The notes under the pieces were generated by a model. It was not told where the DNA came from and searched no databases. It saw only the letters and a list, made by a program, of their open reading frames with translations. From contig CBDCRP010000002.1 of the NCBI GenBank assembly GCA_965221165.1, positions 704,001 to 768,000 of the forward strand: a stretch of DNA of 64,000 nucleotides, written 5' to 3'. Source of the stretch: a bacterium (GTDB taxonomy: Bacteria; UBA8248). Both the position numbers and the translations under genes were made by a program. The first letter of the stretch is position 1; every line of letters starts with the position of its first letter. Below, in pieces: positions 23,874 through 58,742 of this stretch.

Positions 23874-24293
23874 TTATGCCACTTGCCAAGGATTGACGAT
23901 ATCGAGGTCCAGTCCATCGAAATCCCCCGTATTCCGCGTCGCAAGCGAGAGCTCGTGGGCTTTGGCCGTCCCGGCAATCAGCGCATCGCCCAAGTGCAGC
24001 ACCCGGCCCGAGTGATGCGCCTTACCCCGCAGTCGAGCAGCCCATTCAGCTTCCAAACGCTCCAAAGCCAAGATGCGATCTTCGAACTCGACGACGAAAT
24101 CGGATATGAACCGCCGCAATCTGTCCTGACGGCTTCCCTGAGGAAGGAGTTGCAAGCCGAACTCCAATTCATGCACCACGACCGAGGACACCCACAACTC
24201 CTGCTGCTCCGACAGAAACGCGATGACTCTCGGGTCCGGCGAGGCTTTCGTCAGTTCCGATACCACATTGGTGTCTATGAGATAACCGCTCAT
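23874..24293 (-). CDS. vapC: VapC PIN-domain toxin
   Basis: YLIDTNVVSE...DALIAGTA...LATRN.GDF...NPW; ATGA overlap with the antitoxin. Confidence 0.92.
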   Translation of the reverse strand: MSGYLIDTNVVSELTKASPDPRVIAFLSEQQELWVSSVVVHELEFGLQLLPQGSRQDRLRRFISDFVVEFEDRILALERLEAEWAARLRGKAHHSGRVLHLGDALIAGTAKAHELSLATRNTGDFDGLDLDIVNPWQVA

Positions 24294-24568
24294 TCGATAT
24301 CCGGCACCAGGACCGGAATCTCGCGCTCTGGTTCGCGTCGATCCGGGATTTCGAGATTGTCCCCACGGGGCGTATTCTCGACCAGCCACTGACCCAAGGG
24401 CTTGCGATCCGACGTATGGGTACGCCATAGGCGTTCCGGGGCCACAACGAACGCCTTTCTCGTACCGATTCGCTGCGGCCCTTCCTCCTCGGCAAGACGC
24501 AGGATTTCCGAAAGGCGCGCTTTCGCCTCGGCGACGGTCCAGATACGGCTGGGTTTCGAATTGACCAC
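24290..24568 (-). CDS. Phd/YefM family antitoxin
   Basis: WTVAEAKARLSEILRLAEEEGPQRI; upstream of vapC. Confidence 0.88.
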   Translation of the reverse strand: MVNSKPSRIWTVAEAKARLSEILRLAEEEGPQRIGTRKAFVVAPERLWRTHTSDRKPLGQWLVENTPRGDNLEIPDRREPEREIPVLVPDIE

Positions 24569-24593
24569 GGCTAAGACTCCTCATGACAATAAA

Positions 24594-24631
24594 ATATAGT
24601 CTAATATAGACCATATCAGATAATCTGTCAA
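24594..24631 (-). promoter_or_regulatory. Sigma70 promoter with overlapping operator palindrome for phd-vapC
   Basis: TTGACA-N17-TATATT on the minus strand (24631-24603); inverted repeat ATATAGTCTA-ata-TAGACCATAT (24594-24616) covers the -10. Confidence 0.7.
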
Positions 24632-24723: not shown

Positions 24724-26400
24724 CTAAAAATCATCCGCAGAGAATTCGGGCCGCTCCCGCAATATCGCCTTAATATCCTCTCTCTTGTGTTTACGGGTGG
24801 TGGTTCTGGGCAACTCCTCCTCAGGCCAGAGGAAAAAAGCGGCCACCCTCTTGTAATCCGCCAAATGCGCGCTCAGGCGCTTGAGTTCGGAATCGGCCAG
24901 GACCGCGCGTTGCTCGTCTTCTTGCGGTAAATCGGCTTCTGGGTTCATCACCACTACGGCGAATACCTCTTCGCCGCCGCGAGGCGTTTTCCTGCCGAGG
25001 ACGCACACTTCCAGAAACCACTCGCTCTCCAGAAGCTGCTCCTCCACCTCTTCGGGATAAATGTTTTTGCCCGATTCGGAGACGATCACGTTTTTGGAGC
25101 GGCCGCATATCGTGAGGTAGCCATCCGCGTCCAGACGGCCGATGTCTCCGGTATGAAACCACCCATCCCGCAAGACCTCCTCGGTCATCTCCGGATTCTC
25201 GAAATAGCCCTGCATCACGTTGGGCCCGCGGATCAGGATTTCCCCTTCTCCCTCGTCCGCGCCCTCCACGGGTTCTATTCGCGCCTCCACCTCCGGTATG
25301 GGCGGACCGACGGTTCCGATTCTATTCGGCGCTCCCTGAGGATTCGCATGGGTGACGGGGGAGGTTTCCGTCAATCCGTACCCCTGGACCACCTCTATTC
25401 CCAAAACGAGCAAATCCCGCGCGATCCTCGGGTCGAGCGCGGCGCCTCCACTCGCAAAATAGCGCAGATTCTCGCCGAGATTTTTCTTCACCTGGGAAAA
25501 CAACAAACCCCCGACGCGAAAACCCATGGACAGACAAATCCCGGAAATCCCGAAAAGGAGCTTAAAAACGATTTTCTTCGCTCCGCTCAGCGATTCCACG
25601 TTCGACATGATTCGCTTGTGGATGAGCCGCGCCAGCGCCGGCACCATCAGGCAGATGGTGATGCCCTCGTTTTTCATGGTCTCCGCGAGGAGGCGCGGGT
25701 TCAGGGACGAGAGGTAATGCACCCGGGCGCCGGCCGTCAGCGGTATCAGGAAACCGCCCGTGCACTCGAACATGTGGTGAAGCGGCAGAATCGAGAGAAA
25801 AATATCGCTCTCCCCGGCATCGAACGGTACGAGCACGGCGCGCACATTGGAGGTGATGTTCCCGTGAGAGAGCATCACTCCTTTGGGAGTTCCCGTCGTT
25901 CCCGATGAAAACGACACCAGCGCGAGATCGTCCGAGCTTCGTTCGGCGCCCGGCAGGACATCCAGCGCCGTGGTGGGGGGAATCTCTCGATCCTCATCAA
26001 AACGCAACACCTCGGGGGTCGATGAGACATCTCTCGCCAGCGCCCTGGCGCGCTCTTCCTCCCGGGCGTCCGTCACGACGCAAACGGGCCTGGCTTTCTC
26101 CAGAATGTTCGCGAGTTCTCCTTCTTTCAGGTTCACGTCCAACGGCACGAGAACGCCGCCGGCAAGCAGCGCCCCGAAGTACCCCACCGCCCATTCGGGT
26201 TGATTCGGCGCCAACAGGGCGACGAAGTCCCCAGGCTTCACTCCCGCATCCATCAGTTCACGGGCCAAGGCGGCCGCTTCGCCGCAAAGTTTCCTTCTCG
26301 TGAGCGCCACCCTTCCGCGTCCTTCCACGTCGCCTTCGAGAGCGACCGAGTCGGGAAATTTCGTAGTTGCTTCTTTCAGGAGATCAATTAGCGTATCCAC
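24724..26400 (-). CDS. AMP-dependent (long-chain) acyl-CoA synthetase
   Basis: FSSGTTGTPKG, QGYGLTE, WFHTGDIG, GRSKNVIV, GKNIYPEEVE. Confidence 0.9.
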   Translation of the reverse strand: MDTLIDLLKEATTKFPDSVALEGDVEGRGRVALTRRKLCGEAAALARELMDAGVKPGDFVALLAPNQPEWAVGYFGALLAGGVLVPLDVNLKEGELANILEKARPVCVVTDAREEERARALARDVSSTPEVLRFDEDREIPPTTALDVLPGAERSSDDLALVSFSSGTTGTPKGVMLSHGNITSNVRAVLVPFDAGESDIFLSILPLHHMFECTGGFLIPLTAGARVHYLSSLNPRLLAETMKNEGITICLMVPALARLIHKRIMSNVESLSGAKKIVFKLLFGISGICLSMGFRVGGLLFSQVKKNLGENLRYFASGGAALDPRIARDLLVLGIEVVQGYGLTETSPVTHANPQGAPNRIGTVGPPIPEVEARIEPVEGADEGEGEILIRGPNVMQGYFENPEMTEEVLRDGWFHTGDIGRLDADGYLTICGRSKNVIVSESGKNIYPEEVEEQLLESEWFLEVCVLGRKTPRGGEEVFAVVVMNPEADLPQEDEQRAVLADSELKRLSAHLADYKRVAAFFLWPEEELPRTTTRKHKREDIKAILRERPEFSADDF

Positions 26401-26487
26401 ACGCGTTTCCTCCCACCTCTGCCCGCAGGAAGGCTCCCGGCGGGTCGAACGAGGTTAATCATCACTGACTCCATAGAGCTGCCCAGG

Positions 26488-27279
26488 CTAAATCAAACGT
26501 TTTCTTACCTGCCATGCGGCGAACTCTCCCGCGAAAACCAGCGCGATGATGGCCAACACCAGCACGCCCGACTTCTGCCACTGAAACTGTTTGACATACA
26601 AGAACACGTAAAAACCCAAGCCCCCCGCGCCGACCAGGCCCAAAATTGTGGAATCACGCAAATTCATCTCGAAACGAATGGCTAGATGCGCGACCATCTG
26701 AGGCAAAACCTGGGGAATCAGCCCATGTTGGATGACCTGAACGGACGAAGCGCCCGTCCCCTGCAACGCGAGCAGGGGTTTGGGGTCCGTCGCCTCGATT
26801 TCCTCCGCCACGAACCGGCCGAGCACCCCGACCGAGTGCACCGCCAGCGCCAACACTCCGGGGAAGGGACCGAGGCCCACGGCGGAGACGAACAACAAGG
26901 CGAGAAGCAGCAAGGGTATGGAGCGGACGAACGCCATGAGCGCCTTGATGGGCAGGTGCACCCAAACCGGCGTCCAGTTCGACGCCGCCAACACACCCAG
27001 TGGATAAGCAAACAGAGCGCCCAGAAAAGTGCCCGCGATGGTGGTTTGCAGCGTTTCGATCGCCGAGGTCAGCAAAACATCCCAAACCGACCAGTCCGGC
27101 GGCGTCATCCGGCCAAAGAAATGAAACAGCTGGGGAATCCCACGCCAGAATTGCTTGAGTGAAAACTCAGAACCTTGAAAGGACCAGAATAAGAGTGCGC
27201 TAACCGCCAGGAAGAGGCTGGCCCTGGTAGCCATACGCCCAGGTGAAAGCACTTCTGCTTGCTCTCGCTCCGTTCTCAT
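26488..27279 (-). CDS. phnE: PhnE/PtxC-like ABC permease
   Basis: MTPPDW, VRSIP, GLGPFPGVLAL, FEMNLRDSTILGLVGAGGLG. Confidence 0.88.
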   Translation of the reverse strand: MRTEREQAEVLSPGRMATRASLFLAVSALLFWSFQGSEFSLKQFWRGIPQLFHFFGRMTPPDWSVWDVLLTSAIETLQTTIAGTFLGALFAYPLGVLAASNWTPVWVHLPIKALMAFVRSIPLLLLALLFVSAVGLGPFPGVLALAVHSVGVLGRFVAEEIEATDPKPLLALQGTGASSVQVIQHGLIPQVLPQMVAHLAIRFEMNLRDSTILGLVGAGGLGFYVFLYVKQFQWQKSGVLVLAIIALVFAGEFAAWQVRKRLI

Positions 27280-28045
27280 TCACGACTCCGTTCGTTCCCA
27301 TGAACTCATAGATTTCACATATCTTATCATTCGAGAGAGAATCCGAAGAACCATCCCATGTGATTTTTCCGTTTTTCATCGCGAGAACCCTATCGGCATA
27401 TTTCCGCGCAAGTTCCGGAAGGTGGAGGCTCATCATGAGCGTCAGTTGATAGGCGTCGCAAACCGATACGAGAAGATCCATGATATCTTCGGCCAGCGCG
27501 GGGTCCAGGCTCGATACGGGCTCATCGGCCAGCAGAATCGCCGGCTCCTGCGCCAATGCCCGGGCAATGGCCACGCGCTGCTGCTCCCCGCCGGAGAGCG
27601 TGCGGGCAAAGCGGCGTTGCTTGTCGTCGAGATGCACCTCGTGAATGGCCTGTGCGCAGATTTGCAAATCACGCTCCGAGCAGACCCCCAACATGCTTTT
27701 CAGCAAAGACACATAGCCAAGCCTTCCGTGATAGACGTTTTGCCAAACGGTCTCCCGGCCTATCAGGTCGAAATGCTGATGGATCATGCCGATATGCCGA
27801 TGGTGGGCTTTCATCTTTTGCGGCTCCTTGATGGGAAAAACATCCCCCATCACGACCACTTGACCCTCATTGCAAGACACATAGCCCTTGAGCATCCGCA
27901 TCAGGGTCGTCTTGCCGGAACCGCTGTTGCCGATGATGGCCACTCTCTCTCCACGAGAGATGTCGAGATGATCGATGGAAAGAATCGTCCGTCCCCCCAT
28001 CTCCACGCGCGCATCTTCAATTTGGATGACCACTTCTTTCGACAT
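27200..28045 (-). CDS. phnC: PhnC-like ABC ATPase
   Basis: [45 protein letters not shown]. Confidence 0.9.
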
Positions 28046-28049
28046 TTCC

Positions 28050-28973
28050 CTACTCCTTCAAAAAGCCATACTTTCGAGCCAAATCGGCCACCGATCGATA
28101 ACTGCTGTGGTCGACCCTGATGTAACCATCCGTTCCGTAAAGAGCCCGCAGCAACCCACGATTCTCGGGCTGATTCATCTTCATCATCGCCGCAATGAAT
28201 TTTTGCCTGGTTTCAGGCTCCAGCCCCCCCCGGACCACCACATTGTGGCTGGGAATTCGTGCGGATTGCTTGATGGCGACGATTTTGTCCCGCTGCTCGG
28301 GGCGGAGAAGATTGAGAGCGTATTGGCTGACGCCGGCGGCATCGACGAAGCCGCCGAACATCGAGTTGATCGCCTGTTGATCTCCCCCGGCGAAATATAC
28401 TCTTCGGAAAAACCCGCCCTCTGGTTTTCCCACTCCCCCGTTCACGAGGCCGGAACGAACAAAAATATCGTGGGGATACATGAAGCCGGAACTCGAAATA
28501 GGGTCGACATAAGCGATGGTTTTGCCCTTCAGATCGGAGAGCTTTTTGATACCGCTGTCCTTGCGCACAAAAATCCGGGAATAATAATAGGGCTTCCCGT
28601 CGTATATCTCACCAAGAACCGCTTCGACCCCCGAATACTTGTTCGCCAGGACATAGGGCAGCGGAGACATGAAGCTTACATCCGCCTTTTTCGAGATCAT
28701 GGCCTCCACTGCGGCCGAGTAGTTCAAGGTGATGAAATAGCGAACCTTGCGCCCCATTTCTTTTTCCAGGAAGTTCATCGCCGGCTTCACGTTGCTGATG
28801 AGTTTCTCGGGATTCTCGAGCGGAATGAACGCGACCCGAAGTTCTCCATCTACCGCCCGGGCAGGAGGCGAAGCAAACAAAATCATGGAGAAGGCGAGGA
28901 GAGCCGCTCCCGCGAAACCGACACCAGGCGCTTTCGACAATAATTTGCGTATGAAACGCATGGCGTTGTTCAT
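28050..28973 (-). CDS. phnD: PhnD/PtxB-like periplasmic substrate-binding protein
   Basis: Signal peptide; LRVAFIP, YSAAVEAM, VRKDSGIKKLSDLKGK, VDPISSSGF.YP. Confidence 0.85.
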   Translation of the reverse strand: MNNAMRFIRKLLSKAPGVGFAGAALLAFSMILFASPPARAVDGELRVAFIPLENPEKLISNVKPAMNFLEKEMGRKVRYFITLNYSAAVEAMISKKADVSFMSPLPYVLANKYSGVEAVLGEIYDGKPYYYSRIFVRKDSGIKKLSDLKGKTIAYVDPISSSGFMYPHDIFVRSGLVNGGVGKPEGGFFRRVYFAGGDQQAINSMFGGFVDAAGVSQYALNLLRPEQRDKIVAIKQSARIPSHNVVVRGGLEPETRQKFIAAMMKMNQPENRGLLRALYGTDGYIRVDHSSYRSVADLARKYGFLKE

Positions 28974-30931
28974 TTGAGTTTATCCACATTTTTCTCATAA
29001 AGCGCGTGAAAATCCGCTATTTTGCTGTCAGTCATCTTCACGTCACCGGCAATGTGAGCGCTCAAGGCTTCGCTTAATTTTTTCTCCATATCATGGAGAA
29101 TCGGCAGATTTCCCTTGTCCTGCACATCCCACTTATGGGCCTGCACTTCGCGCACCACTGTTTTCAGCAAGACGCTGATCAATTCTTTCTTCTTTCTCTG
29201 CTTCAAACGCTCATATGTGGAGAGGAAAAACTTGAATTCCTCCAGTTCCGAATCCAATGTGTAAATCGTATCTTCAATGCCCTGGACGCCATCGCCCACG
29301 GCCTCCACATAAGCAGTGAGGTCGTCGATACTCTTTCGGCTCAGCCCAAGCCCGAACTGCCTGTTGAACCATTCGTTCACCGCCCGCAGGGTAGGCAGGC
29401 TGCCATTATGAAAATAAGGGGCCGTGAATTTCGATGAGAGCAGAGTGGGCGTATCCAACCCCCCTACATGGAAGGGTTGCCGCTCTCCCCCCGTGGAACC
29501 GATATTGTGTCGTTTGTGGTCCACGAAGTTCGCGTTTGGAATATGGCAACTCGCACAACTCATCCCGCCCATCATCTGCGGGAACTTCCGGTGAAATATC
29601 TTCTCGCCCCGAAGCGCCGCTTTGGAAACCTTCTCGGGATGGAGCCTACCGCTTTTTTTCAGCTTCGGGTTCGGCAAGAACTCGAACTCGTTCATATAGG
29701 CGATCATCCCGTCCATGATCATCGGGTCGGGTTCGGGCCCATTGAACTCATTCACGATGACGTTGCGAACGAATTCCCTGAGCGAGGCGAAACGCCCGTT
29801 CCGGCCGTAGGGGGCCGTGAAGCGAATCCCCCTCAAGTCGGGCGTGTCGAGCGGATCGTGCAGGCCGTTGTTGGCGTGACCCGCGAAGAAACTGTTCGAT
29901 ACGTCCATCCCGCCTTTTTCCCTGGAAAGTCCCGGGATGAAGAGCTTGGGATTCGTCACCCCCTTGTTGTGGCAAGTGTTGCAACTGACCCCCAGGCTGC
30001 GCGCGGGCTCCCCGAATATCTCCGGGCTGTCGAAAGCCATATCCCCCAAAGCGATGAGAAAGGTTTCCGCCTCGTTCGCTCCACGCTCCGCCATTCCGAG
30101 AATCTGGCGGGGACGGGGGAGTTGTTTGTTGATGTTGGCGCCGGGCGGCAGCCTCCACGGCACTCTAGCCGTTTTGAGGTATGTTTCGCTCGCCTTCGGC
30201 CGCGGCAGAAGCCTGTACCCTTTCCCGGCCCGGAACCCGGAAAAATTCGAGTAGAAATAGCGGCGGATGAGAGCGGTATTCTCACGAATTTTCTCCAGAT
30301 TCATCGGCCTTGCGCCGATGCCCATCACACCGGCCGCCCCGAGGTGGGAACTCGCTTCCAGCCAATGGATTTGCATCTTCTTCCACCCTTTCGGATCCAG
30401 ATGCGGCAAGGTCTCGGCAAATGACAGAAAAACCCTTCGCGCTTCATTCAGGTGGGTTTTCACCCCGGATCTCTTCGAGCCCGCCTTGATCCGATCTATG
30501 CGAGAGACCAGCAACAAAGCGACTCCCCGTGTCGCCAGGGAAAAGACCAAACGCCTCCCGTTCCGCCGCGCGGCGACCATGTCCGGCTCTTTACCGCCTC
30601 TCGCCAAGGGCTGGGCCACGCGTCTTGCGGCAGCCAACTCCTCCGAGAATTTCCTCGCGCCAAGAGGGTCCACAGCTCTTAACGCTTCCTCGATGCGCCT
30701 CATATCGAGCCAGACCTGCGGCCAGTGCACCGGGTTCAGATTCAGGATAAAGCTGGCGCGACGATAGCTTTCAGCAACGGGGTGCAATTCCTCTGGAGGG
30801 ACGATGTGCGCCGAAGCGGGACTGAAACTCATCATCAACAAGCCGGTGGCCAGAAGCCACGTCGGCATCACCAAAGAATTTTTAACACGCAGAACAAGCC
30901 TCGCTCCGGGCGTTTTGAGGCCGCAATTCAT
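28970..30931 (-). CDS. Periplasmic di-heme cytochrome c (CcP/MauG superfamily) with extra N- and C-terminal domains
   Basis: Signal peptide ending ASA-H; two CxxCH motifs (CNTCH, CASCH); TPDLRG..FTAPY and TPTL...TAPYFHNGS. Start may be 30868. Confidence 0.8.
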   Translation of the reverse strand: MNCGLKTPGARLVLRVKNSLVMPTWLLATGLLMMSFSPASAHIVPPEELHPVAESYRRASFILNLNPVHWPQVWLDMRRIEEALRAVDPLGARKFSEELAAARRVAQPLARGGKEPDMVAARRNGRRLVFSLATRGVALLLVSRIDRIKAGSKRSGVKTHLNEARRVFLSFAETLPHLDPKGWKKMQIHWLEASSHLGAAGVMGIGARPMNLEKIRENTALIRRYFYSNFSGFRAGKGYRLLPRPKASETYLKTARVPWRLPPGANINKQLPRPRQILGMAERGANEAETFLIALGDMAFDSPEIFGEPARSLGVSCNTCHNKGVTNPKLFIPGLSREKGGMDVSNSFFAGHANNGLHDPLDTPDLRGIRFTAPYGRNGRFASLREFVRNVIVNEFNGPEPDPMIMDGMIAYMNEFEFLPNPKLKKSGRLHPEKVSKAALRGEKIFHRKFPQMMGGMSCASCHIPNANFVDHKRHNIGSTGGERQPFHVGGLDTPTLLSSKFTAPYFHNGSLPTLRAVNEWFNRQFGLGLSRKSIDDLTAYVEAVGDGVQGIEDTIYTLDSELEEFKFFLSTYERLKQRKKKELISVLLKTVVREVQAHKWDVQDKGNLPILHDMEKKLSEALSAHIAGDVKMTDSKIADFHALYEKNVDKLK

Positions 30932-31018
30932 ATTTTCGGTCTCTCCATAACAAAAAACCCATCAGACAAAAAATTCTATTCCGATCTGAAAAATAAAGTC
31001 AACCTATTTATAATATAT

Positions 31019-31036
31019 TTTTAGATATGACTAAAA
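31019..31036. promoter_or_regulatory. DtxR/MntR-like operator palindrome
   Basis: TTTTAG-ATATGA-CTAAAA in the AT-rich region ~90 bp upstream of the cytochrome gene; same TTAG-N6-CTAA geometry as the SirR box. Confidence 0.45.
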
Positions 31037-31131
31037 TCAAGGAAGCAAATTAATGTCAATACAAACAATTACTTAAAGAATTTATTAAAAATACCAGATT
31101 AAAAAAATTTTTCTTTCAGGAATTGGACTAC

Positions 31132-31356: not shown

Positions 31357-31695
31357 CTAGATGGCGCCATCGCCTCTATCGCCGGTGCGTATCCGCACAC
31401 AATCTTCCACCGCCTGGACGAATATCTTGCCGTCCCCTATCTGGCCCGAATTCGCCGCACCGCAAATCGCCGTGACGATGGCGTCGGCGTTCTCGTCTTG
31501 CGTCAGGATTTCCACCTTGATTTTCGGCAGGAAATCGACCACGTACTCACTGCCGCGATAAAGTTCGGTGTGGCCTTTCTGACGGCCAAACCCCTTTACT
31601 TCGCTCACCGTCATGCCCGTCACCCCGGCATCTCCCAGCGCTTCCTTCACACTTTCCAGCTTAAATGGCTTGATAATCGCCGTGACTAAACGCAT
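31357..31695 (-). CDS. glnK: P-II nitrogen regulator
   Basis: AIIKPFKL, GFGRQKGHTELYRGSEY, GDGKIF, IRTG; adjacent to amtB. Confidence 0.95.
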   Translation of the reverse strand: MRLVTAIIKPFKLESVKEALGDAGVTGMTVSEVKGFGRQKGHTELYRGSEYVVDFLPKIKVEILTQDENADAIVTAICGAANSGQIGDGKIFVQAVEDCVRIRTGDRGDGAI

Positions 31696-31754
31696 TGTTC
31701 ATTCCCCTCAAGATGACAGATGGACTCATCCGGTATGAATTCCTTCCCCGAAAA

Positions 31755-33146
31755 TCAACCCAACCTCTCTCCTGCATAGGCTTCCATGCCGTGTTCGGAG
31801 AGGTCGAGACCGGCCGATTCGTCCTCTGCCGAAACGCGCACACCCATCACGGCTTTCACCGCTTGCCAAAGAATGAGGGATAAGACGAAAGTGAAGACAC
31901 CGACCGCGATGACACCCGTGAGCTGTTTGATGAAGAGCCCAGCACCCCCGCCGTAGAACAAACCTACGACACCCTCGTCAATGGAAGGTGCTGCGAACAA
32001 ACCGAGCGCAAGCGTGCCGAAGATACCGCATACCAGGTGAACCGAAACGGCGCCGACCGGATCGTCAATCTTGATCTTGTCGAGGAACGGAACCGCGATG
32101 CAGACGATGACGCCCGCGGCCAGACCGATTATCACCGCCCCAAACGGAGTAACGTTCGCGCATGGCGCCGTGATGGCGACCAGGCCTGCAAGCGCGCCGT
32201 TCACGCTCATGGAAAGATCGGCCTTGCCGAACATGGCTCTCGACGTGATGCTTGAAGCCACGACACCCGCCGAGGCGGCGAGGTTCGTCGTCACTGCGAT
32301 GCGCGCGATGGCTCCCGCATCGGCGGCCATGGTGCTGCCCGGGTTAAACCCGAACCATCCGAGCCACAAGATGAACCCACCCAGTGTAACGAGCGGCATG
32401 TTGTGGCCGGGAATCGGCTGCATCCGGCCGTCGGACGAATACTTCCCGAGCCGGGGACCAAGAACGATGATTCCGGCGAGGCCCGCCCAGCCGCCTACGG
32501 AGTGAACCACGGTGGAACCGGCGAAATCGAGAAAACCCATTCCGCCCAACCAGCCGCCACCCCAAATCCAGTGGCCCTGGATGGGATAGATGATGGCGAC
32601 GAGCAGGAAGCTGAAGACCATGAACGAGGAGAACTTGATGCGCTCGGCCACACAACCCGAAACGATGGTCGCCGCCGTCGCCGCGAAAACGAGCTGGAAG
32701 AAAAACTTCGCGTATAGAGGCACACCCGTCCAGTTGAGGGATGAGAAAACACCCTTGTACGCATCGCCCGTGGCCGGGCTGTTGTCCACCCCAGACAGGA
32801 GAAATCCATTCGTTCCGAATATCGAACTGCCATCACCGAACATGAGGGCGAAACCCAATATCCAGAATGCCAGGGACGAGACGGCTACAACGCCGAAATT
32901 CTTATAGAGAATGGCGACGGTGTTCTTCGCGCGGCAAAGCCCCGATTCGAGCATCGCGAAACCCGCGTGCATAAAAAACACCAGAAACCCAGCCACCATC
33001 ACCCAAACGGTGTCCGCCGCGACTTGCAAACCAGCGAGGCTCTTCGCCATGGTCTTGACATCCTGCGCCCAACCGCTGGCGGCGAAAGACAAAACCCCCA
33101 TGGCGAAAACCAGCGTCGCCGCAATATAGAGATTCCTTCTTCTCAT
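31755..33146 (-). CDS. amtB: Ammonium transporter
   Basis: FQLVFAATAATIVSG.VAER, DFAGSTVVH, WLGWFGFNPGS, DDPVGAVSVH, GLDLSEHG. Confidence 0.97.
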   Translation of the reverse strand: MRRRNLYIAATLVFAMGVLSFAASGWAQDVKTMAKSLAGLQVAADTVWVMVAGFLVFFMHAGFAMLESGLCRAKNTVAILYKNFGVVAVSSLAFWILGFALMFGDGSSIFGTNGFLLSGVDNSPATGDAYKGVFSSLNWTGVPLYAKFFFQLVFAATAATIVSGCVAERIKFSSFMVFSFLLVAIIYPIQGHWIWGGGWLGGMGFLDFAGSTVVHSVGGWAGLAGIIVLGPRLGKYSSDGRMQPIPGHNMPLVTLGGFILWLGWFGFNPGSTMAADAGAIARIAVTTNLAASAGVVASSITSRAMFGKADLSMSVNGALAGLVAITAPCANVTPFGAVIIGLAAGVIVCIAVPFLDKIKIDDPVGAVSVHLVCGIFGTLALGLFAAPSIDEGVVGLFYGGGAGLFIKQLTGVIAVGVFTFVLSLILWQAVKAVMGVRVSAEDESAGLDLSEHGMEAYAGERLG

Positions 33147-41787: not shown

Positions 41788-42391
41788 GGGCCATCTGGCG
41801 GAGTTCGGAGTCGTCGCCCCCCAAGGCCGAGCCCACCTCGCGCGGTTGGCGTCGGCCGTTGCCAATCCGGGTTCGGGGTTGCCCGAGGCGGTCCGCGAAC
41901 TGGGCGTGGTTCTGCTCGCGCATATAGCCGGCCTGAAGGAGAAGATACAGGAGTTGGAGAGGCGACTCCGCACGAGCGCGTACGAGGATGAGGAAGCGAG
42001 ACGACTGATGAGCATTCCGGGGGTCGGTCCGGTCTGCGCGTCGGCGATCCAGGCCTTCGCCCCGCCGATGGAGAGCTTCCGCCGGGGGCGGGACTTCTCC
42101 GCCTGGCTCGGTCTCGTGCCGCGACAGCACTCGACCGGAGGCAAGCCGCGACTGGGTAGGATATCGAAGATGGGCCGGCGCGACGTGAGGCGGTTGTTGA
42201 TCACGGGCGCGATGAGCGTGGTGCGCTGGGCGGTCCGGCGAGGCGCGCCCCCCGGATCGTGGCTGGCCCGGATGCTGGCGCGTAAGCCCAAGATGCTGGT
42301 TGCGGTGGCGCTGGCCAACAGGATGACGCGCATCGCCTGGGCGCTGATTACGAACAGAGAATTCTACCGGGAGCCCGCGCCGGCCGCCTGA
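41783..42391 (+). pseudogene. IS110/IS1111 family recombinase, 5'-truncated
   Basis: LRGHLAEFGVVAPQG...LMSIPGVGP...FSAWLGLVPRQHSTGGK.RLGRISKMG...VALANRMTRIAWAL; the N-terminal DEDD/RuvC domain is absent. Confidence 0.9.
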
Positions 42392-42661
42392 GCGGCAGGC
42401 GAGCGGAGCACGGCGGGAATGTGAGCAGGCCGAATGAGGAGGTAGGGGCGAACGGTCATTGAGACGGGGTCGGGAAAACCAGGACCAGATTTTGGAGTTT
42501 TTCAAGCTCGCACGGTCGATTCGGACCCGATCCTCGCATTTCCATACGGGCCGCGGTAATAGTGAAACGCCGCAATTGAGAGGCCGTATACACGAATGAG
42601 TCTGACCATAACGCACCAAAACCTCCGGGCCAACGCTTGCATTCTTGGGCGCGTCCATACA
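42392..42661 (+). ncRNA. IS1111-type right non-coding end, probable bridge/seek RNA
   Basis: ~270-nt structured non-coding region after the recombinase; stem GGGGTCGGG/CCCGATCC, GGGCC..GCGG..CCGC..AGGCC block, ending GCGTCCAT as in IS1111 sub-terminal repeats. Confidence 0.7.
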
Positions 42662-43925
42662 CAAATCTGGTGTATGGCCGTCTCGAATCCAGCGGCCCTC
42701 CCGCCCGTTTCTTTTTCCTCCACCCCATCGATGAACCTCACGTCGGCGATCACCTCGGCCAGATGATGGAAGCCGCGTAGTCGGCGCCATCGCTTCTCGG
42801 CGCTCATGGCGAGTTGATGCACAAGGCTCAGCGCCGTCTTCTCGCTCAGGCAGTACCTCGTCTTCGCCGTTCGCAAGCGGATGGTGGCGAAGGTCGATTC
42901 GATGGGGTTCGTCGTCCGAAGACTCCGCTAGTGCGCCGCCGGGAAGTCGTAGAAGGCGAGCAACTCCTCGCGGTCCCCCGCCAGGCAATCGGCGGCTTTC
43001 GGGTACTTCGCCTCCCAGGTGGCACAGAAGCGCTCAAAAGCCTCCTTCGCATGCGCACGGGTTTCGGGATATACCTCGGCCAGGGCCGACCACAACCCCA
43101 GCCCACCGTCGCCCACCGCCAGCTTCGCCGCCCTCACGCCCCGGTCCCGCAGGCTCAACAGCACCGCCTCCAGCTCTCCTTCGACTCCCTGAACCCGGAT
43201 TCCAGGGCCAGGAAGCGCTTGCGGCCACGCGCGTCGCAGCCCACAACCACTAGCAGACAACGCCGCTCCTCGCCGCGCACGTTCACGTAGATCCCGTCCG
43301 CCCACAGATACACGAACTCCTCGCCACCCCAGTCCCGCTCGCGCCACTGCGCGTACTCACGCTCCCAGCCGTCCTTGAGCCGCGCGACGCTCGCCGGGGA
43401 CAATCCCTTCACCGACTCGCCGAACAGCGCCGTGAGCGCTTCACCGAAGTCGTTCGTCGATACCCCCTTCAGGTACAGCCACGGAATCACCGCCTCCATA
43501 CGCCTCGTCTTCTTCAAATACGGCGGCAGCAACTCCGAGCGGAAGCACCGGCCCGCGCCCGACCTGTCCCGCGTCCGCGGAACCCGGACACGCACCGGAC
43601 CCACACCCGTCAACACCTCCCGCGACGGCAGGTAGCCGTTGCGAACCACCGCGCGTCGACCTTGCGCGTCACGGTCGGCCGCATACCCTTCCAGAAAGGC
43701 CTCCAACTCCGCTTCCACCGCCTGGCGGATGATTCGTTGCGCGCCCTCGCGCACCAGTTCGCTCAACTCGTCCCGTAGGGCTGGATTCCGGAAAGGAATC
43801 GTCGTATCTTCTCTCATGGTGGAGCATCTCCTGTGTGCTGAATGACCGGGCTTTGGACAACCCTATTTCAGCAGGATGCGACGCCTTCTTCAATTCAGCC
43901 CATACACAACTTCTGACAGTAACTC
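42662..43925 (-). mobile_element. IS256-family element, decayed
   Basis: RNGY, VPRTRDR, LYLKGVSTNDF, YLWADGIY, GDGGLGLW, TTNPIES motifs spread over frames: frameshift ~43170, TAG at 42930-42928, apparent internal deletion. Left IR GAGTTACTGTCAGAAGTTGTGTATG; right IR only partly present (CATACACCAGATTTG). Confidence 0.9.
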
Positions 43926-43939
43926 GTCGGGGAGTGCCC

Positions 43940-45685
43940 ATGGATCCAGGCTGCGACCGAATCACCACCGAGGTCATCGCGCACCGCTTCGCCGCCGCGG
44001 CCGACGAGATGATGGCCACCCTCGTCAAGACCGCGTATTCCCCGAACATCAAGGAGCGGCGTGACTGCTCGGTCGCGATCTTCGACACTGCGGGCAACCT
44101 CCTCGCCCTGACCGCCATCGCCCCCCTTCACCTGAGCTCGCTCCTCGGCCTCGTGGAGAACATCACCCGGCGTTACCCCCTCGACCGCTTTCGCCCCGGC
44201 GACGGCTTCCTCACGAACGATCCGTACGTGGGAGGCGGCTCGCACCTGCCGGACCTGACGCTCGCAAGGCCCGTCTTCTTCGATGGCCGGCCGGTCGCGT
44301 TCGTCGCCAACATCGCCCACCACTCCGACATCGGCGGCAAGGTGGCGGGGAGCGAGAGCGCCGACTGCACGAGCATCTTCCAGGAAGGGCTGCGGATCCC
44401 TCCCGTCAAGCTGCTGGACGAGGGGGAACTGTGCACCGACATGCTCGCGTTCGTGCTCCTCAACTCGCGCACCCCGCGCGAGCGCGAGGGCGATCTGCGG
44501 GCCCAGATCGCGACCAACGCCATCGGGGTCCGCCGGGTGCAGGAGTGCTTTGCTCGCTTCGGAGCCGATAGCGTGCACCGGGGCGCGAGAGCGCTCCTCG
44601 ACTACGCCGAGTCGCGCACTCGCGCCGAGATCGCGAGGCTGCCGGACGGAACCTACGAGAACGAAGAAGTGGTCGACAACGACGGCGTGGCCGACGGCAT
44701 CGTTCGCCTCCGCGTCAAGATCACCATTCGCGTCGATCGCATTCACTTCGACTTCACGGGCACCGACGGGCAGATCGCAGGGGCCCGGAACATGCCGCTC
44801 GCGGCCACCCTGTCCGGCGTCTACTACGCGGTCAAGGCGGTGACGGACCCGGCGCTGCCGCCCAACTCCGGGTACTTCCGCGCCATCGGCGTCACCGCGC
44901 CGGAAGGCACGGTCGTCAACTGCCGCCCCCCCGCCGCCGTCGGGGATCGGGGCGCGACCGGCAACGTGCTCGGCGACCTGCTGCTGGGCGCGCTCGCCGA
45001 CGCTGCGCCGGACCGGGTGATGGCCGGCTGCGGTCCGCTCCACGGGCTTATCTTCAGCGGCGTCGACCCGCGCCGGAACGAGTACTTCGTCGACTACGAG
45101 ACCTACGCGGGAGCGTCCGGCGCGCTTTCCGCGCTCGACGGAAAAGACGCGGTCCGGGTCCACGTTTCAGGCGCGGCCAACCTGCCCATCGAATCCGTGG
45201 AGCAGGAGTTCCCGCTGACCGTCGGCCGCTACGAGCTGATCGCCGACTCGGGAGGCCCCGGACGGCATCGCGGCGGCCTCGCGACGCGCCGCGACGTCAC
45301 CATCTGGGCGGAGCGGGCGAGGCTCGCAGGCCGCGGACTGCGCCAATCCCGAGGCGCGTCCGGGCTGTTTGGCGGAAGTTCGGGGTGTCCCGGCGTCTTC
45401 GTTCTGGACCCGGGCGGAAACCGCGAGACGAAGCTTCCGGGCTCGTTCTCGGAGCTCAAGGTGGACGCGAGAACGACGGTCCGGGTCGACACCCCGTCCG
45501 GTGCCGGCTTCGGCGACCCGTGGGAACGCGATCCGGAGAGGGTGCGCGACGACGTGGCCGCCGGCAAGGTGACCGCACCCGCGGCGGAGCAGAGCTACGG
45601 CGTCGCGCTCGTCCGCGGAAGCGTCGACGCCTCCCGGACCGCGGCCTTGCGGGAGGCCCGCCAAGATTCGAACCGTGGCGCCTGA
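43940..45685 (+). CDS. Hydantoinase B/oxoprolinase subunit (copy 1)
   Basis: TAYSPNIKERRDCS, NDPY.GGSHLPD, HHSDIGG, DSGGPGRHRGG, GAGFGDP.ERDPE.V..DV. Confidence 0.92.
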   Translation: MDPGCDRITTEVIAHRFAAAADEMMATLVKTAYSPNIKERRDCSVAIFDTAGNLLALTAIAPLHLSSLLGLVENITRRYPLDRFRPGDGFLTNDPYVGGGSHLPDLTLARPVFFDGRPVAFVANIAHHSDIGGKVAGSESADCTSIFQEGLRIPPVKLLDEGELCTDMLAFVLLNSRTPREREGDLRAQIATNAIGVRRVQECFARFGADSVHRGARALLDYAESRTRAEIARLPDGTYENEEVVDNDGVADGIVRLRVKITIRVDRIHFDFTGTDGQIAGARNMPLAATLSGVYYAVKAVTDPALPPNSGYFRAIGVTAPEGTVVNCRPPAAVGDRGATGNVLGDLLLGALADAAPDRVMAGCGPLHGLIFSGVDPRRNEYFVDYETYAGASGALSALDGKDAVRVHVSGAANLPIESVEQEFPLTVGRYELIADSGGPGRHRGGLATRRDVTIWAERARLAGRGLRQSRGASGLFGGSSGCPGVFVLDPGGNRETKLPGSFSELKVDARTTVRVDTPSGAGFGDPWERDPERVRDDVAAGKVTAPAAEQSYGVALVRGSVDASRTAALREARQDSNRGA

Positions 45686-47777
45686 GCGTTACGTCCTCGG
45701 CGTCGACGTCGGCGGGACGTTCACCGACTTCGCACTCGTCCGCCTCTCGGACGGCAAGACGTGGTTTCTGAAGACACCCTCGACCCCGGACGACCCGTCC
45801 CGGGCGATTGCGGCCGGTATTCCGGAGCTATTGGACTGTGCAGCCGCCGGTGCCGGGAACGTCCGCTACTTCGGCCACGGAACGACGGTCGCCACCAACG
45901 CGCTCATCACGGGGGACACGGCGGTCACGGGCCTCATCACCACTGAAGGGTTTCGCGACATCCTGGAGATCCGCCGCCAGCGCCAACCCCACAACTACGA
46001 CATTCGGATGCCGAAGCCCCCGCCCCTCGTCGCGCGCCACCTCCGGCGCGAGATCGAGGAGCGCACCTATCTCCTCGGGCCTTCCGACGTGCCGCCGGAC
46101 CTCGAAGCGCTCGATGGAATCCTCGACGACTTCCGCCGCGAAGGCGTGGAGGCGGTGGCCGTCTGCTTCCTGCACAGCTACCACAATCCGGCCCACGAGG
46201 CCGCCGTCGCGGCCGCGGTGCGCGAGCACCTTCCCGGTGCGTTCACCTGCGCATCCCACGAAGTCGTGGCCGAGTTCCGCGAGTACGAGAGGACCACGAC
46301 CACCGTGCTGAACGCATCGCTGGGCCCGGTCGTGAGCCGCTATCTCGAGCGCCTCGGGGAACGGTCCCGCGCCCTGGGCATCGTGGGCCCGAAGATCCTC
46401 CAGTCCCACGGCGGCGTCGCCTCGCTTCGGGATGCGGGTGCGATGGCGGGCCGCTGCCTCATGTCGGGGCCGGCGGCGGGAGTCACCGGCGCGGGCTTTC
46501 TCGCCGGAAGAGCCGAGTGTCCGGACGTCATCACCTTCGACGTCGGGGGAACGAGCACCGACGTCTGCCTCATCGAAGGCAACCGGCCGCTCGTCGCAAA
46601 GGAGCGGGAGGTGCGGGGGCATCCCATCCGCTTTCCGATGGTCGACGTGCATTCGGTGGGAGCCGGAGGGGGCAGCATCGCGCGCGTGGACACGGGCGGC
46701 TTCGTGCACGTGGGCCCCCGGAGCGCCGGCGCCGCGCCCGGCCCCGCCTGCTACGGCCTCGGGGGAACCGAGCCCACCGTGACCGACGCCAACGTCGTGC
46801 TCGGCCGCCTTTCCGGCGAATCCCTGCTGGGCGGCCGTATGAGCCTCCGTCCCGACCTCGCGCACCGCGCAATCGCCGACAAGGTGGCGGCCCCGATGGG
46901 GCTCGGGGTCGAGGAGGCGGCCGAAGCGGTGCTCACCATCCTCAACGAGAACCTGGTTCAGGCGATACGCGTGATCTCGGTGGAGAAGGGTTTCGATCCG
47001 CGGCACTTCACCCTGGTGGCGTTCGGGGGGGCGGGGCCTCTCCTCGCCTCCGCGCTCGCCCGCGAGCTGGGCATGACCCGGGTCATGGTGCCGCCCGGAC
47101 CGGGTCTCCTGTGCGCGCTCGGGCTCCTCGTCGCCGACGTGCGCTCGGATTTCAGCCTGACGCGGATCGCCGATCTCGAGGGAACCGGCGCCGCCGGCAT
47201 CAACGTCACCTTCACGGAGGTCGGACAGCGAGCGCTCGAATGGTTCGACCGGGAGGGGGTGGAGCCCGGCGAGCGCACGGTGCAACGTGCCATCGACATG
47301 CGCTACGTCGGACAGAGCCACGAGATCACGGTGGCGGTTCAGGAGCGGGAATTCGCCGACCACGACCTCTCGGCGCTGGTCGACGCTTTCCGGCGCGAGC
47401 ACGAAAGAGTGTACGGCTACGCGCCGGACGCGCCGGTTCAACTGGTCACCTTTCGCGTCACCGCCCTCGCCCGGGTGACGGCGCCCCCGGTCGCGGGCAC
47501 CGCCGGGACGGGCGGCGACCTGCGCGCGGCGGAGCGAGGGAGGCGCCGGGTGCATTTTGCAGAGCTCGGCGGATTCGTCGATTGTCCGATCTACGCCCGG
47601 GAGGGCCTCCCCCGGGGCGCCGATCTCGAAGGCCCCGCGATCCTCGAGCAGATGGACTCGACGACCGTCGTGCTGCCCGGACAGGTCGCCCGCAGCGACG
47701 AGCAGGGCAACCTGAACCTCACGGTCGTGTCGGCCCCGCACGACGCAGGGAGCGGCGGTAGCGGGGGGCTCGCATGA
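45675..47777 (+). CDS. Hydantoinase A/oxoprolinase subunit (copy 1)
   Basis: GVDVGGTFTD, HGTTVATNA, SGPAAG, FDVGGTSTD, GAGGGSIA, TVTDAN, FGGAG. Confidence 0.93.
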   Translation: MAPERYVLGVDVGGTFTDFALVRLSDGKTWFLKTPSTPDDPSRAIAAGIPELLDCAAAGAGNVRYFGHGTTVATNALITGDTAVTGLITTEGFRDILEIRRQRQPHNYDIRMPKPPPLVARHLRREIEERTYLLGPSDVPPDLEALDGILDDFRREGVEAVAVCFLHSYHNPAHEAAVAAAVREHLPGAFTCASHEVVAEFREYERTTTTVLNASLGPVVSRYLERLGERSRALGIVGPKILQSHGGVASLRDAGAMAGRCLMSGPAAGVTGAGFLAGRAECPDVITFDVGGTSTDVCLIEGNRPLVAKEREVRGHPIRFPMVDVHSVGAGGGSIARVDTGGFVHVGPRSAGAAPGPACYGLGGTEPTVTDANVVLGRLSGESLLGGRMSLRPDLAHRAIADKVAAPMGLGVEEAAEAVLTILNENLVQAIRVISVEKGFDPRHFTLVAFGGAGPLLASALARELGMTRVMVPPGPGLLCALGLLVADVRSDFSLTRIADLEGTGAAGINVTFTEVGQRALEWFDREGVEPGERTVQRAIDMRYVGQSHEITVAVQEREFADHDLSALVDAFRREHERVYGYAPDAPVQLVTFRVTALARVTAPPVAGTAGTGGDLRAAERGRRRVHFAELGGFVDCPIYAREGLPRGADLEGPAILEQMDSTTVVLPGQVARSDEQGNLNLTVVSAPHDAGSGGSGGLA

Positions 47778-47802
47778 CAGGGCCGAGAGAGACGGAGGGA
47801 GC

Positions 47803-48746
47803 ATGAGCAAGGATTCGGAGCGATTCCAGGTCTGGCTCGACGGCGGCATGGTCGCGCCCGAGGACGCCAAGGTGAGCGTCCTCACCGCCACCGCCATGCG
47901 CGGAGCGAACGTCTACGAGGGTTTGCGGGCCTATTGGGACGAGGTGCGGGACAACCTCTTCGTCTGGAAGCTGGATCAGCACCTCGAGCGCCTGTTCGTC
48001 AACATGAAGATCATGCGGATGACGTCCCCCTACGGTTTCGACGAGTACCGGCAGGCGGTCCTCGACTGGGCGCGCGCGAAACGGTTCTGGGAGGACGTCC
48101 ACATGCGTCTGGTGACGTACTTCGGATTCGGCGTTGCCGGGGACGTCAAGAAGTACCGGCCGGAGGAGATCGAGATCGGTGCGTGGGTGGCGGGGGGGGG
48201 GGCCGCCCCCACGACGACGCCCTCCGGCACGGCATTCACGTCTGCGTCAGCAGTTGGCGGCGCATCCACGACGATTCGATTCCGGCCCGGGTGAAGGTCG
48301 GGTCCAACTACCAGAACAGCCGCCTCGCCGGGGTGGAGGCGCGCGTCAACGGCTACGACGACGCCCTCATCCTCAACCGGGACGGCAAGCTCGCCGAGGC
48401 GTCGGGCGCGAACGTGATGCTGGTACGCGACGGGCAGTTGATCACGCCTTCCGTGACGGCGGGAATTCTGGAAGGGATCACCCGCGCCACCTTGATGGGG
48501 CTCTTCGCGAAGGTCCGAAACCGCCCGGCGGTGGAGCGGGAGGTGGACCGCACCGAGCTCTATCTCGCGGACGAGATCCTGATCTGCGGCTCGGCGGAGG
48601 AAGTGACGCCCGTCGTCTCGGTGGACCGGATCCCGGTCGGCGATGGGAAGCCCGGCCCCCTCACCCGGGAGCTTCAGGAAGCGTTCTTCCGCGCCACCCG
48701 CGGCAAGGACCCGGATTTCGCCGACGTTCTCACCCCGATCTACTGA
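47803..48746 (+). pseudogene. Class IV PLP aminotransferase (IlvE-like), frameshifted at a G11 tract
   Basis: N-terminal VYEGLRAY...HLERL in one frame; C-terminal RVKVGSNY, EASGAN, ILEGITR in another; the frame switches at G11 (48192-48202). Confidence 0.85.
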
Positions 48747-53147: not shown

Positions 53148-53149
53148 AC

Positions 53150-58735: not shown

Positions 58736-58742
58736 GATAAAA

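Follow-up and report, generated by a model that had tools for sequence, protein, structure and literature searches.

A di-heme cytochrome encoded with a PhnD-type importer: a candidate trace-metal uptake cassette under predicted manganese-type repression

In this study, we have analysed a 64-kb stretch of DNA from a bacterium of the UBA8248 lineage (GenBank assembly GCA_965221165.1, contig CBDCRP010000002.1, positions 704,001 to 768,000), hereafter the window, taken from a genome of 3.69 Mb that is 96% complete. It carries a cassette headed by the gene for a 653-residue di-heme cytochrome and continued by phnD, phnC and a single phnE, the parts of an ATP-binding cassette (ABC) importer that by its labels would serve phosphonates. 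We propose instead, with a probability of about one half, that the cassette is not a phosphonate system and is a trace-metal importer repressed by a manganese-sensing regulator of the MntR/DtxR family, with manganese as the likeliest cargo. The genes and control elements are the following, in window coordinates.

31012-31040, minus strand: sigma-70-like promoter match (TTGATT, 17 nucleotides, TATATT), from a consensus scan
31018-31037, minus strand: predicted MntR-type operator, TTTTAGTCATATCTAAAA, with the core palindrome TTAG-N6-CTAA at 31021-31034
31002-30973, minus strand: second sigma-70-like promoter match, from a consensus scan
28970-30931, minus strand: gene for the 653-residue di-heme protein, called as an open reading frame (ORF), with a Sec-type leader and three modules
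28050-28973, minus strand: phnD, periplasmic substrate-binding protein (SBP) of PhnD/PtxB fold with a remodelled pocket, best PDB match PtxB
27200-28045, minus strand: phnC, PhnC-like ABC ATPase (Pfam ABC_tran)
26488-27279, minus strand: phnE, single PhnE-like permease (NCBIfam TIGR01097)
24724-26400, minus strand: AMP-binding, acyl-CoA-ligase-like gene (Pfam AMP-binding, 1.2e-83)
24652-24636, minus strand: terminator-like site 3' of the AMP-ligase

The stop of the cytochrome gene and the start of phnD overlap by 4 bp (ATGA), phnD and phnC are 4 nucleotides (nt) apart, and the nominal frames of phnC and phnE share 80 nt; the true phnE start may lie downstream of 27279. Since there is only one phnE gene, its product is presumably a homodimer. 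The ligase gene follows phnE after 87 nt that hold no terminator-like site, and in the window it may be co-transcribed with the cassette. This is the succession of genes given in the initial annotation, which had left room for their separate transcription; a single promoter and operator, followed by genes that overlap or lie close together, give no indication of it. The cytochrome gene, phnD, phnC and phnE are partly covered by contigs of relatives (90-97% identity) from three metatranscriptome runs, and these contigs span the phnD/phnC and phnC/phnE junctions; DNA carry-over is possible in these RNA libraries and the contigs prove no transcript. Within phnC, the bin 27388-27611 reaches a summed contig depth of 50-290 in the three runs, compared with less than 20 elsewhere, and is flanked by many loose ends; this looks less like expression of the gene than like recruitment, by the conserved ABC-ATPase motif, of contigs from unrelated organisms. 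The genes amt and glnB (31357-33146) lie immediately upstream in the same orientation, with a terminator-like hairpin dividing glnB from the cassette, a synteny found in Nitrospinota-like loci only. The lack of phosphonate catabolism, also claimed in the initial annotation, holds for the 50 window ORFs scanned with Pfam, and PhnJ was not found in the 96%-complete genome; no ptxD appeared among the 50 ORFs in general scans, which included no PtxD-specific model.

The cassette occurs widely in uncultured lineages, most of them marine. A scan of one genome per species gave 80 related loci, whose gene content was counted by tblastn with the window proteins. In 78 of them, the cytochrome gene is followed directly by a PhnD-like gene in the same orientation, and phnD, phnC and phnE are all present in 74, four of the remainder ending at a contig edge; at L076 a repressor gene comes after the cytochrome, and at L079 the cytochrome is truncated and the transporter missing. 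The loci represent at least eight phyla, comprising Nitrospinota (the close relatives of the window), Planctomycetota, Verrucomicrobiota/Opitutales, Acidobacteriota, Hydrogenedentota and Sumerlaeota, together with Lentisphaeria, Oligoflexia, a deltaproteobacterial metagenome-assembled genome and Nitrospirales, and ORF coordinates suggest short cytochrome-phnD overlaps in several of the other phyla too. The linkage is thus not peculiar to this genome, as might have been feared at the outset. The AMP-ligase, initially counted as a member of the unit, lies downstream in only 22 of the 80 loci, all within the 26 Nitrospinota-like ones, and being confined to one clade it falls outside the conserved core.

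Within the phylum of the window, the cytochrome and this particular SBP are inherited together. The cytochrome is present as a single copy in 31 of 51 species genomes, including all 22 other genomes of the window's genus, and reaches 7 of the 15 genera of the phylum. SBP profile scores are bimodal in the 51 genomes, with at least 419 bits in exactly the same 31, always adjacent to the cytochrome, and at most 253 bits for every other PhnD-like match. The SBP of genome G009 (253 bits, 38% identical), an orphan without cytochrome or PhnCE, was considered and rejected as a cassette member.

The genes around the cassette point to metals. ORFs of the 80 loci were clustered, and the representatives, with 117 further flanking ORFs, were annotated. 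Beyond clade synteny only two partners recur, a DtxR-family repressor and an outer-membrane channel. The repressor, of the MntR/DtxR family and with a FeoA domain, flanks 25 of the 80 loci (ORF clusters and tblastn combined), on either side and on either strand; the channels, at 22 loci, are PF13557 barrels in 19 cases and OprB porins in three. TonB-dependent receptors stand at L029, L039 and L060, an AhpC/TSA-type peroxiredoxin directly upstream at L032, L053, L061 and L063, and no Pho-regulon, carbon-phosphorus (C-P) lyase, phosphite or arsenic gene recurs among the neighbours.

The repressors themselves belong to the manganese type, with scores of 183-207 bits for the NCBIfam MntR model (NF047407) versus 79-94 bits for that of DtxR, both under the equivalog cut-offs; their best solved relatives are the Deinococcus radiodurans manganese sensor DR2539 (8pvt, 9.6e-45), Mycobacterium tuberculosis MntR (5zr4) and ScaR, with IdeR and DtxR ranking lower (about 1e-21 to 1e-19). 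In the alignments, the Met and Cys of the primary site of the Fe-type protein are Asp/Asn and Glu in the cassette repressors, and all 13 repressor ORFs with a readable motif have H..AE..EH, with Glu where the Fe-type DtxR has Cys. Where it deals with this site, the DR2539 preprint terms an acidic primary site 'characteristic of manganese specific regulators' (10.1101/2024.02.12.579695). The genome of the window has an MntR-type orthologue elsewhere, with 50% identity and the primary site Asp, Glu, Glu, His; this gene (L081, G000:C3:1292627-1296268) adjoins TonB-like (425 residues) and ChrR-cupin-like genes and no transporter. At two Planctomycetales loci (L063:5905-7883 and L074:6561-7952), a Fur-family regulator, which could be a PerR- or Mur-type switch, replaces MntR upstream of a barrel-cytochrome cassette, and at L063 the AhpC-type peroxiredoxin precedes it. 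At L036 (11702-13189), a 495-residue open frame continues beyond its PhnE-like part into a repressor domain of the DtxR family (Pfam, residues 263-393), and is either a fusion or the result of a missed stop or start.

The strongest single argument lies in the promoter: although no repressor gene adjoins it, the operon of the window is predicted from an operator match to belong to an MntR-type regulon. The palindrome TTTTAG-N6-CTAAAA fills the promoter spacer (TTGATT-TTAGTCATATCTAAAAA-TATATT), and the 3.69-Mb genome has one exact match to TTAG-N6-CTAA, at this promoter. In the section of the preprint concerned with it, the DR2539 operator of the manganese transporter gene dr1709 is given as ATTTTAGTCGCGCCTAAAAT (10.1101/2024.02.12.579695), and the site in the window has identical half-sites and spacing. 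In 23 of the 25 loci of the clade, and in 10 of 47 loci of other phyla, the 270 nt preceding the first gene of the operon contain a site with at most one mismatch, where about 0.02 sites per 270 nt are expected from the rest of the same loci; as kin are not independent, the clade count is a single observation, not 23. The pattern emerged from the rows of a DtxR-box scan and was then tested separately. The consensus of the canonical DtxR box gave only middling matches and was set aside, and no Pho box was seen in the cassette promoter.

The SBP belongs to the phosphonate-binding fold and departs from its characterised members in the pocket. It matches Pfam Phosphonate-bd (1.3e-56), and its closest solved relatives are PtxB (5o2j, 2.5e-28), ArrX, HtxB, AioX and PhnD. 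With 183.6 bits it passes the broad NCBIfam phosphate/phosphite/phosphonate subfamily TIGR01098 (cut-off 112.05), and with 173.1 bits it fails the PhnD equivalog TIGR03431 (cut-off 261.1). Of the other transporter parts, PhnC failed its model TIGR02315 (236.6 bits, cut-off 266.1), and PhnE passed TIGR01097 (267.2 bits, cut-off 216.7). In their treatment of the PtxB pocket, Bisson et al. describe an STS-H motif together with a capping Tyr and its Asp partner, and H155, the capping Tyr and D16 are given as strictly conserved in PtxB (PMC5700983). The PtxB residues named by these authors were mapped onto the SBP through the PDB alignment, with the following correspondences.

Ps_PtxB Y49: SBP Y85
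Ps_PtxB Y94: SBP Y130
Ps_PtxB STS 124-126: SBP SSS 160-162
Ps_PtxB H155: SBP G197
Ps_PtxB capping Tyr: SBP H243
Ps_PtxB D16: Leu in the SBP of the window, Tyr in most homologues

With H155, the capping Tyr and D16 of PtxB replaced, the pocket is neither of the phosphite nor of the 2-aminoethylphosphonate type. Part of the oxyanion cradle is retained, and a His is gained beside several Tyr. Ferric-binding proteins use Tyr and His together with a synergistic anion, and the likeness of the SBP pocket to theirs is a lead only. Invariant in 60 cassette SBPs are Y85, E122, Y124, Y130, D157, S162, G163, G196, G197, D198, Q200, R228, P241, H243 and Y279; no Trp is conserved at 90% or more in the alignment.

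The di-heme protein is built from three modules, as follows.

30182-30808, minus strand: N-terminal helical domain (N-domain), residues 42-250, predicted SBP-docking module (predicted local distance difference test, pLDDT, of the model 94)
29282-30139, minus strand: di-heme core, residues ~265-550, related to bacterial cytochrome c peroxidases (bCcP) and MauG (Pfam, PDB profile, Foldseek)
29969-29983, minus strand: first heme-binding motif, CNTCH
29543-29557, minus strand: second heme-binding motif, CASCH
28973-29266, minus strand: C-terminal four-helix bundle, residues 556-653 (fold search, best Z 12.6, generic bundle)

Among at least 1435 homologues found at E <=0.001 in 8000 scored candidates, the best 120 listed are 49-94% identical to it and 119 of them have 614-674 residues, so the three-module architecture is the norm of the family; the about 250 extra N-terminal residues and the helical C-terminal tail pointed out initially correspond to the first and third modules. 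Decayed copies were seen at L042 (6445-7077), with a stop inside the N-domain, and at L079 (7881-9470), which keeps only residues ~265-653. The leader ends in SPASA and is predicted to be cleaved before HIVPPEELH, so that the mature protein would start with a His, as first suggested; this His is conserved at 90% or more in 46 aligned homologues.

The N-domain supplies a link to metal uptake of another kind. It was modelled alone from 50 sequences, and among its features are a loop, LGAAGVMGIG (197-206), and a conserved peptide at the N-terminus, HIVPPE. Its fold matches are generic helical proteins such as alpha-catenin and vinculin, with Z up to 8.9. Likeness to EfeO, Algp7 and EfeM is weak in Foldseek (E 0.5-1.7, probability 0.38-0.69) and does not suffice for naming the domain imelysin-like, and the ESM Atlas gave no usable match. 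With a profile of the N-domain, 166 proteins were retrieved at E <=0.001 from 1.84 billion representatives, most of them fragments of the cytochrome family; ten belong to a distinct standalone family, whose members have about 250 residues, a signal peptide and a membrane anchor at the C-terminus, and which hhalign relates to the N-domain with 99.2% probability (E 6.4e-20, 164 columns). We collected 79 metagenome loci for this family (L085-L163), 73 of which hold the family ORF, and in 61 of the 73 an FTR1 iron permease (PF03239, 6.5e-40) lies within three genes of it; PhnDCE was found in none of the metagenome loci. Given the homology and the adjacency to FTR1, the N-domain of the cytochrome is kin to a protein in the position of EfeO/EfeM, and FTR1 permeases may have in the standalone family a partner not described before. 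In two distant standalone relatives, Pfam M75 matches below its threshold (E 7.5e-4 and 9e-3), and a PDB sequence search with the family profile returned nothing meaningful. The motif LGxPGxxGxG is common to the N-domain and the standalone family. The latter has the motifs AYSYGNP...AEAYK and ALGNPGLFGVG (example L086:6001-6729) and adjoins, besides the FTR1 permease, a 490-residue polytopic membrane protein; often near it is a 400-residue lipoprotein with repeated H..E-type helices, and around it are genes of the cell-envelope type (glycosyltransferase, epimerase, LPG_synthase_TM, sulfatase-like).

Structure prediction supports docking of the cytochrome on the SBP through its two accessory domains. 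The complex, one of the checks proposed with the initial annotation, was folded three times from cytochrome residues 40-653 and SBP residues 40-307 (46 alignment rows each) with two hemes, and gave ipSAE scores of 0.80, 0.80 and 0.77 versus 0.00 for the best of three controls; the runs share at least 73% of their contacts and the partner pLDDT is 86. In the calibration of the tool, 116 of 157 solved complexes reached the mark, as did 2 of 215 mismatched pairs, figures that apply only roughly here, with our own alignments and the riding hemes. We know of no like complex, and in our judgement a pass from a memorised solved structure therefore seems unlikely. The confident interface on the cytochrome comprises residues 44, 46-47, 155, 184-208, 597-598, 601, 606 and 616, that is, the N-terminal peptide, a helix and the Gly-rich loop of the N-domain, with LGxPGxxGxG at the centre, and the C-terminal bundle near H599-K600-W601; no residue of the heme core is in this list. 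On the SBP, it comprises residues 83-86, 89-90, 106-114, 125, 154, 157-159, 192-200, 204-210, 218-229 and 304-305, including YFAGGDxQ, a signature of the subfamily at the place of the ligand-binding His of PtxB.

The core between these accessory domains is a remote relative of known enzymes. It has exactly two CxxCH motifs, CNTCH at residue 317 and CASCH at 459, whose Cys pairs and His are all invariant in 46 aligned sequences, together with the motif PYFH(D/N)G. Pfam CCP_MauG (PF03150) is matched with 45.4 bits (cut-off 25.6, E 1.7e-11) over residues 442-517 only, RoxA-like_Cyt-c is matched as well, and PDB profiles relate the core to hydrazine synthase gamma (9.8e-12), BccP (1e-9) and MauG (3e-7); bCcPs are also the top Foldseek matches of the whole AlphaFold2 model, weakly (best E 1.6e-3). 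NCBIfam MauG (TIGR03791) fails with 31.5 bits against a cut-off of 443.85, the best NCBIfam match, MbnH (TIGR04039), fails with 48.9 against 362.85, models of other named di-heme enzymes score far under their cut-offs, and neither DUF1111 nor M75 of Pfam matches the protein at E <=0.01. Proteins of the bCcP/MauG type have two domains, about 300-370 residues and nothing extra, compared with the 653 residues and two added domains found here. In canonical bCcPs, the high-potential heme has His/Met ligation, a Trp lies between the hemes and there is a Ca site. The solved bCcPs align to parts of the protein only, and the stretch of the bCcP Met ligand reads NEWF, with no Met aligned. Invariant aromatic residues are W190, W521, Y541 and W601, and the C-terminal bundle has a conserved acidic/His cluster (E562, E564, E565, E595, H599, K600 and W601). 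The AlphaFold2 model, built on 22 sequences, has high confidence over residues 50-230 and fair confidence over 556-653.

These elements can be arranged in a working model whose principle, by analogy, would be redox-coupled import like that of EfeUOB. Under metal scarcity, the cytochrome-phnD-phnC-phnE operon would be derepressed; many genomes have an outer-membrane barrel gene and the repressor gene clustered with it. The periplasmic protein, with its N-domain related to an FTR1 partner, its bCcP/MauG-like core and its four-helix bundle with the acidic/His cluster, would dock through the accessory modules on a PhnD/PtxB-fold SBP in which the phosphite residues are swapped (His to Gly, capping Tyr to His). 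There, the heme core would carry out redox chemistry on the cargo; in the version that we favour, peroxide or oxygen would drive the oxidation of M(II) to M(III), along the lines of EfeUOB and Fet3-Ftr1. The M(III) would be handed to the SBP and trapped in its Tyr/His-lined pocket, perhaps with a synergistic oxyanion, and PhnC/PhnE would import it. We favour oxidation because the enzyme family produces strong oxidants, the pocket is rich in Tyr and the N-domain kin serve FTR1 permeases; alternatively, Mn(III) or Mn(IV) species may be reduced. Manganese is preferred as cargo on account of the regulator type and the operator, while iron or a broader specificity may apply in view of the Fur-family, FeoB and ZIP neighbours. 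In the initial annotation, an oxidase was thought to act ahead of ABC import on a substrate or on the SBP; the predicted docking agrees with either version. As to the cargo, Mn-type repressors, a DR2539-type operator, outer-membrane channels and the lack of nearby phosphorus genes make a metal more probable than a phosphorus compound. With clearly less confidence, we also entertain that the cassette represents an ABC importer of a new class, whose SBP is docked by a dedicated di-heme enzyme that alters the redox state of the cargo at capture. Its boldest form would be a bacterial "manganese peroxidase" oxidising Mn(II) to Mn(III), which a Tyr/His-lined PhnD-fold protein would trap at the nanomolar manganese of the ocean.

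Several observations weigh against a manganese importer of this kind. The operator pattern is found in only 10 of 47 loci of other phyla, and no repressor gene is present in the examined DNA of 55 of the 80 loci. Fur-family genes at two loci (L063 and L074), two ZIP transporters at L051 and FeoB at L052 make the choice of manganese over other metals less certain. Nramp exceeds its cut-off in 2 of the 51 phylum genomes, both without the cassette, and is too rare for the complementary distribution that we considered to show a clear pattern; a ZnuA-family SBP is also present in the genome of the window. The SBP keeps the oxyanion-binding Tyr85, Tyr130 and SSS, and its ligand may be an oxyanion. 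In the VIA comparison, the N-domain reaches Z 5.0-5.5 with EfeO, EfeM and imelysin, and generic helical proteins score higher (Z 8.9). The heme core is poor in the AlphaFold2 model (pLDDT below 50 over long stretches, mean pLDDT 68), and its distal heme ligands cannot be assigned at that confidence. Docking is a model confidence and not a measurement; that the SBP or the cytochrome binds a metal, and in which direction a redox step would run, are proposals. No contig of the three RNA runs bridges the cytochrome/phnD junction by at least 31 nt.

The docking is equally well accommodated if the cytochrome is a maturase of the SBP, an explanation that we consider unlikely and that only indirect arguments disfavour. 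Like MauG with preMADH or MbnH with MbnP, the enzyme would oxidise a residue of the SBP, for example an invariant Tyr, and so create a metal site of high affinity, after which the matured SBP would work with PhnCE alone. The bCcP/MauG superfamily membership of the protein is in keeping with this, as is its best NCBIfam match to MbnH, even at 48.9 bits, and so are the strongly predicted interface, which touches the pocket residues Y85, D157-I159 and G196-Q200, and the fact that the 31 genomes (of 51) with the cytochrome are exactly those with the SBP subfamily; W190, W521, Y541 and W601 could serve for hole hopping. However, the absence of a Trp conserved at 90% or more in the SBP makes a kynurenine of the MbnP type unlikely, and the confident interface is on the accessory domains, not on the heme core. 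Moreover, the relatives of the N-domain pair with FTR1 permeases, not with obvious modification substrates, and a one-off maturase needs no 1:1 translational coupling to its substrate across phyla.

It is far less probable that the cassette takes up a reduced phosphorus or arsenic oxyanion (phosphite, hypophosphite or arsenite), with the cytochrome oxidising it in the periplasm in place of PtxD. The nearest solved relatives of the SBP (PtxB, ArrX, HtxB and AioX), its retained Tyr85, Tyr130 and SSS motif, the passing score of PhnE and the fact that neither C-P lyase nor ptxD was found (the latter without a model of its own) would fit such a function. However, the determinants of PtxB described in the pocket analysis of PMC5700983 are lost (H155 to Gly, capping Tyr to His, D16 to Leu or Tyr), Mn-type repressors, metal transporters and outer-membrane channels recur beside the cassette and phosphorus or arsenic genes never do, and the promoter shows an MntR-type operator and no Pho box. 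In addition, oxidation of phosphite in the periplasm gives phosphate, which a PtxB-like pocket binds poorly. Finally, a periplasmic peroxide scavenger merely co-regulated with the transporter, suggested by the peroxidase ancestry and by the AhpC/TSA genes directly upstream in four loci, hardly agrees with the 4-bp gene overlap and the similar short overlaps suggested in several phyla, the gene order fixed in 78 of 80 loci, the strict co-inheritance of cytochrome and SBP, and a predicted specific interface that uses family-specific signatures of both proteins.

Comparison with characterised systems places the candidate trace-metal cassette between several of them. With PtxABC, PhnCDE and HtxBCDE it shares the three transporter parts and their folds, and the two Tyr and the Ser triplet of the SBP; it differs in having a di-heme protein translationally coupled to the SBP, in its replaced ligand residues, in the lack of phosphonate or phosphite catabolic genes and in the predicted control by an Mn-type repressor instead of Pho. 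The EfeUOB/M, Fet3-Ftr1 and FtrABCD systems are oxidase-coupled FTR1 metal uptake systems, and the reports on EfeUOB, where they treat its logic, describe a periplasmic heme peroxidase-type enzyme, a helical partner, an importer and metal-responsive repression (PMC9174327, PMC3577903); Xu et al. suggested that helper proteins of this sort may mediate peroxidase-transporter complexes. The N-domain of the cassette is homologous to a family found beside FTR1 permeases, whereas its importer is an ABC transporter with a PhnD-fold SBP and not an FTR1 permease, its enzyme a c-type di-heme relative of bCcP/MauG and not a dye-decolourising peroxidase (DyP), its helper domain is fused with the enzyme in one chain, and its regulator is of the Mn type. 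Neither an FTR1-family permease nor a DyP was found in the window or among the recurrent neighbours of the 80 loci.

The MauG-preMADH and MbnH-MbnP pairs also set a c-type di-heme enzyme of the same superfamily beside a periplasmic partner, as the predicted docking does here, and MbnPH works in copper acquisition. In contrast, the partner in the cassette is the SBP of an ABC importer, without a conserved Trp, and the enzyme has two extra domains and scores far below the cut-offs of both families. In the clusters of imelysin-like and DUF1111 proteins too, for example PA4370-PA4373 of Pseudomonas aeruginosa, a helical periplasmic protein is paired with a di-heme peroxidase-like protein, sometimes by fusion, at uptake loci under metal regulation (PMC3143127); those clusters are without a PhnD-type ABC importer, and the cassette is without a match to DUF1111 or M75 at E <=0.01. 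Finally, CcpA, MacA and BccP resemble the protein in the two CxxCH motifs, the CCP_MauG match, PYFH(D/N)G and the Foldseek matches, but have about 320 residues compared with 653, and the Pfam model covers only 442-517. We found no description of this cytochrome-transporter pairing in a literature search outside which subscription journals and preprint supplements lay. New in this work are the correspondence with the DR2539 operator and the uniqueness of the site in the genome, the co-inheritance within the phylum, the docking map and the finding that the N-domain is homologous to a family linked to FTR1.

The rest of the window is of a different character. The other 42 ORFs, in the Pfam sweep, include surface-polysaccharide genes, amt-glnB, hydantoinases and transporters. 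A stretch of high G+C content (65-71%, versus about 55% elsewhere) at 42000-48000 starts at a truncated Mutator-family transposase ORF (43155-43817) and contains the first of three hydantoinase/oxoprolinase A+B pairs (43835-47777, 51054-54862 and 56555-60437), among which an SBP gene and a permease gene are interspersed. A HigB-like toxin and a helix-turn-helix antitoxin form a pair at 1014-1640, and a PIN-domain (VapC-like) ORF at 23874-24614, just downstream of the ligase terminator, has a long N-terminal extension that is probably not real.

All together, our results bear on how genes of this type are read. Pfam and NCBIfam label the cassette as a phosphonate transporter, and in marine metagenomes phosphonate use is gauged by counts of phnD; this SBP subfamily probably reports the scavenging of trace metals. 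The standalone relatives of the N-domain, beside FTR1 permeases, are a second uncharacterised family, and there is a fair chance that experiments could make the cassette a kind of its own. If the proposed mechanism is true, oxidase-coupled uptake as in EfeUOB and Fet3-Ftr1 would extend to ABC transporters, perhaps for manganese. In the boldest reading, the cassette would be the first dedicated route of Mn(III) uptake and its cytochrome the first heme enzyme that docks on an SBP. From an ecological point of view, it could bear on the manganese or iron supply of nitrite-oxidising Nitrospinota, and of Planctomycetota, Verrucomicrobiota and Acidobacteriota.

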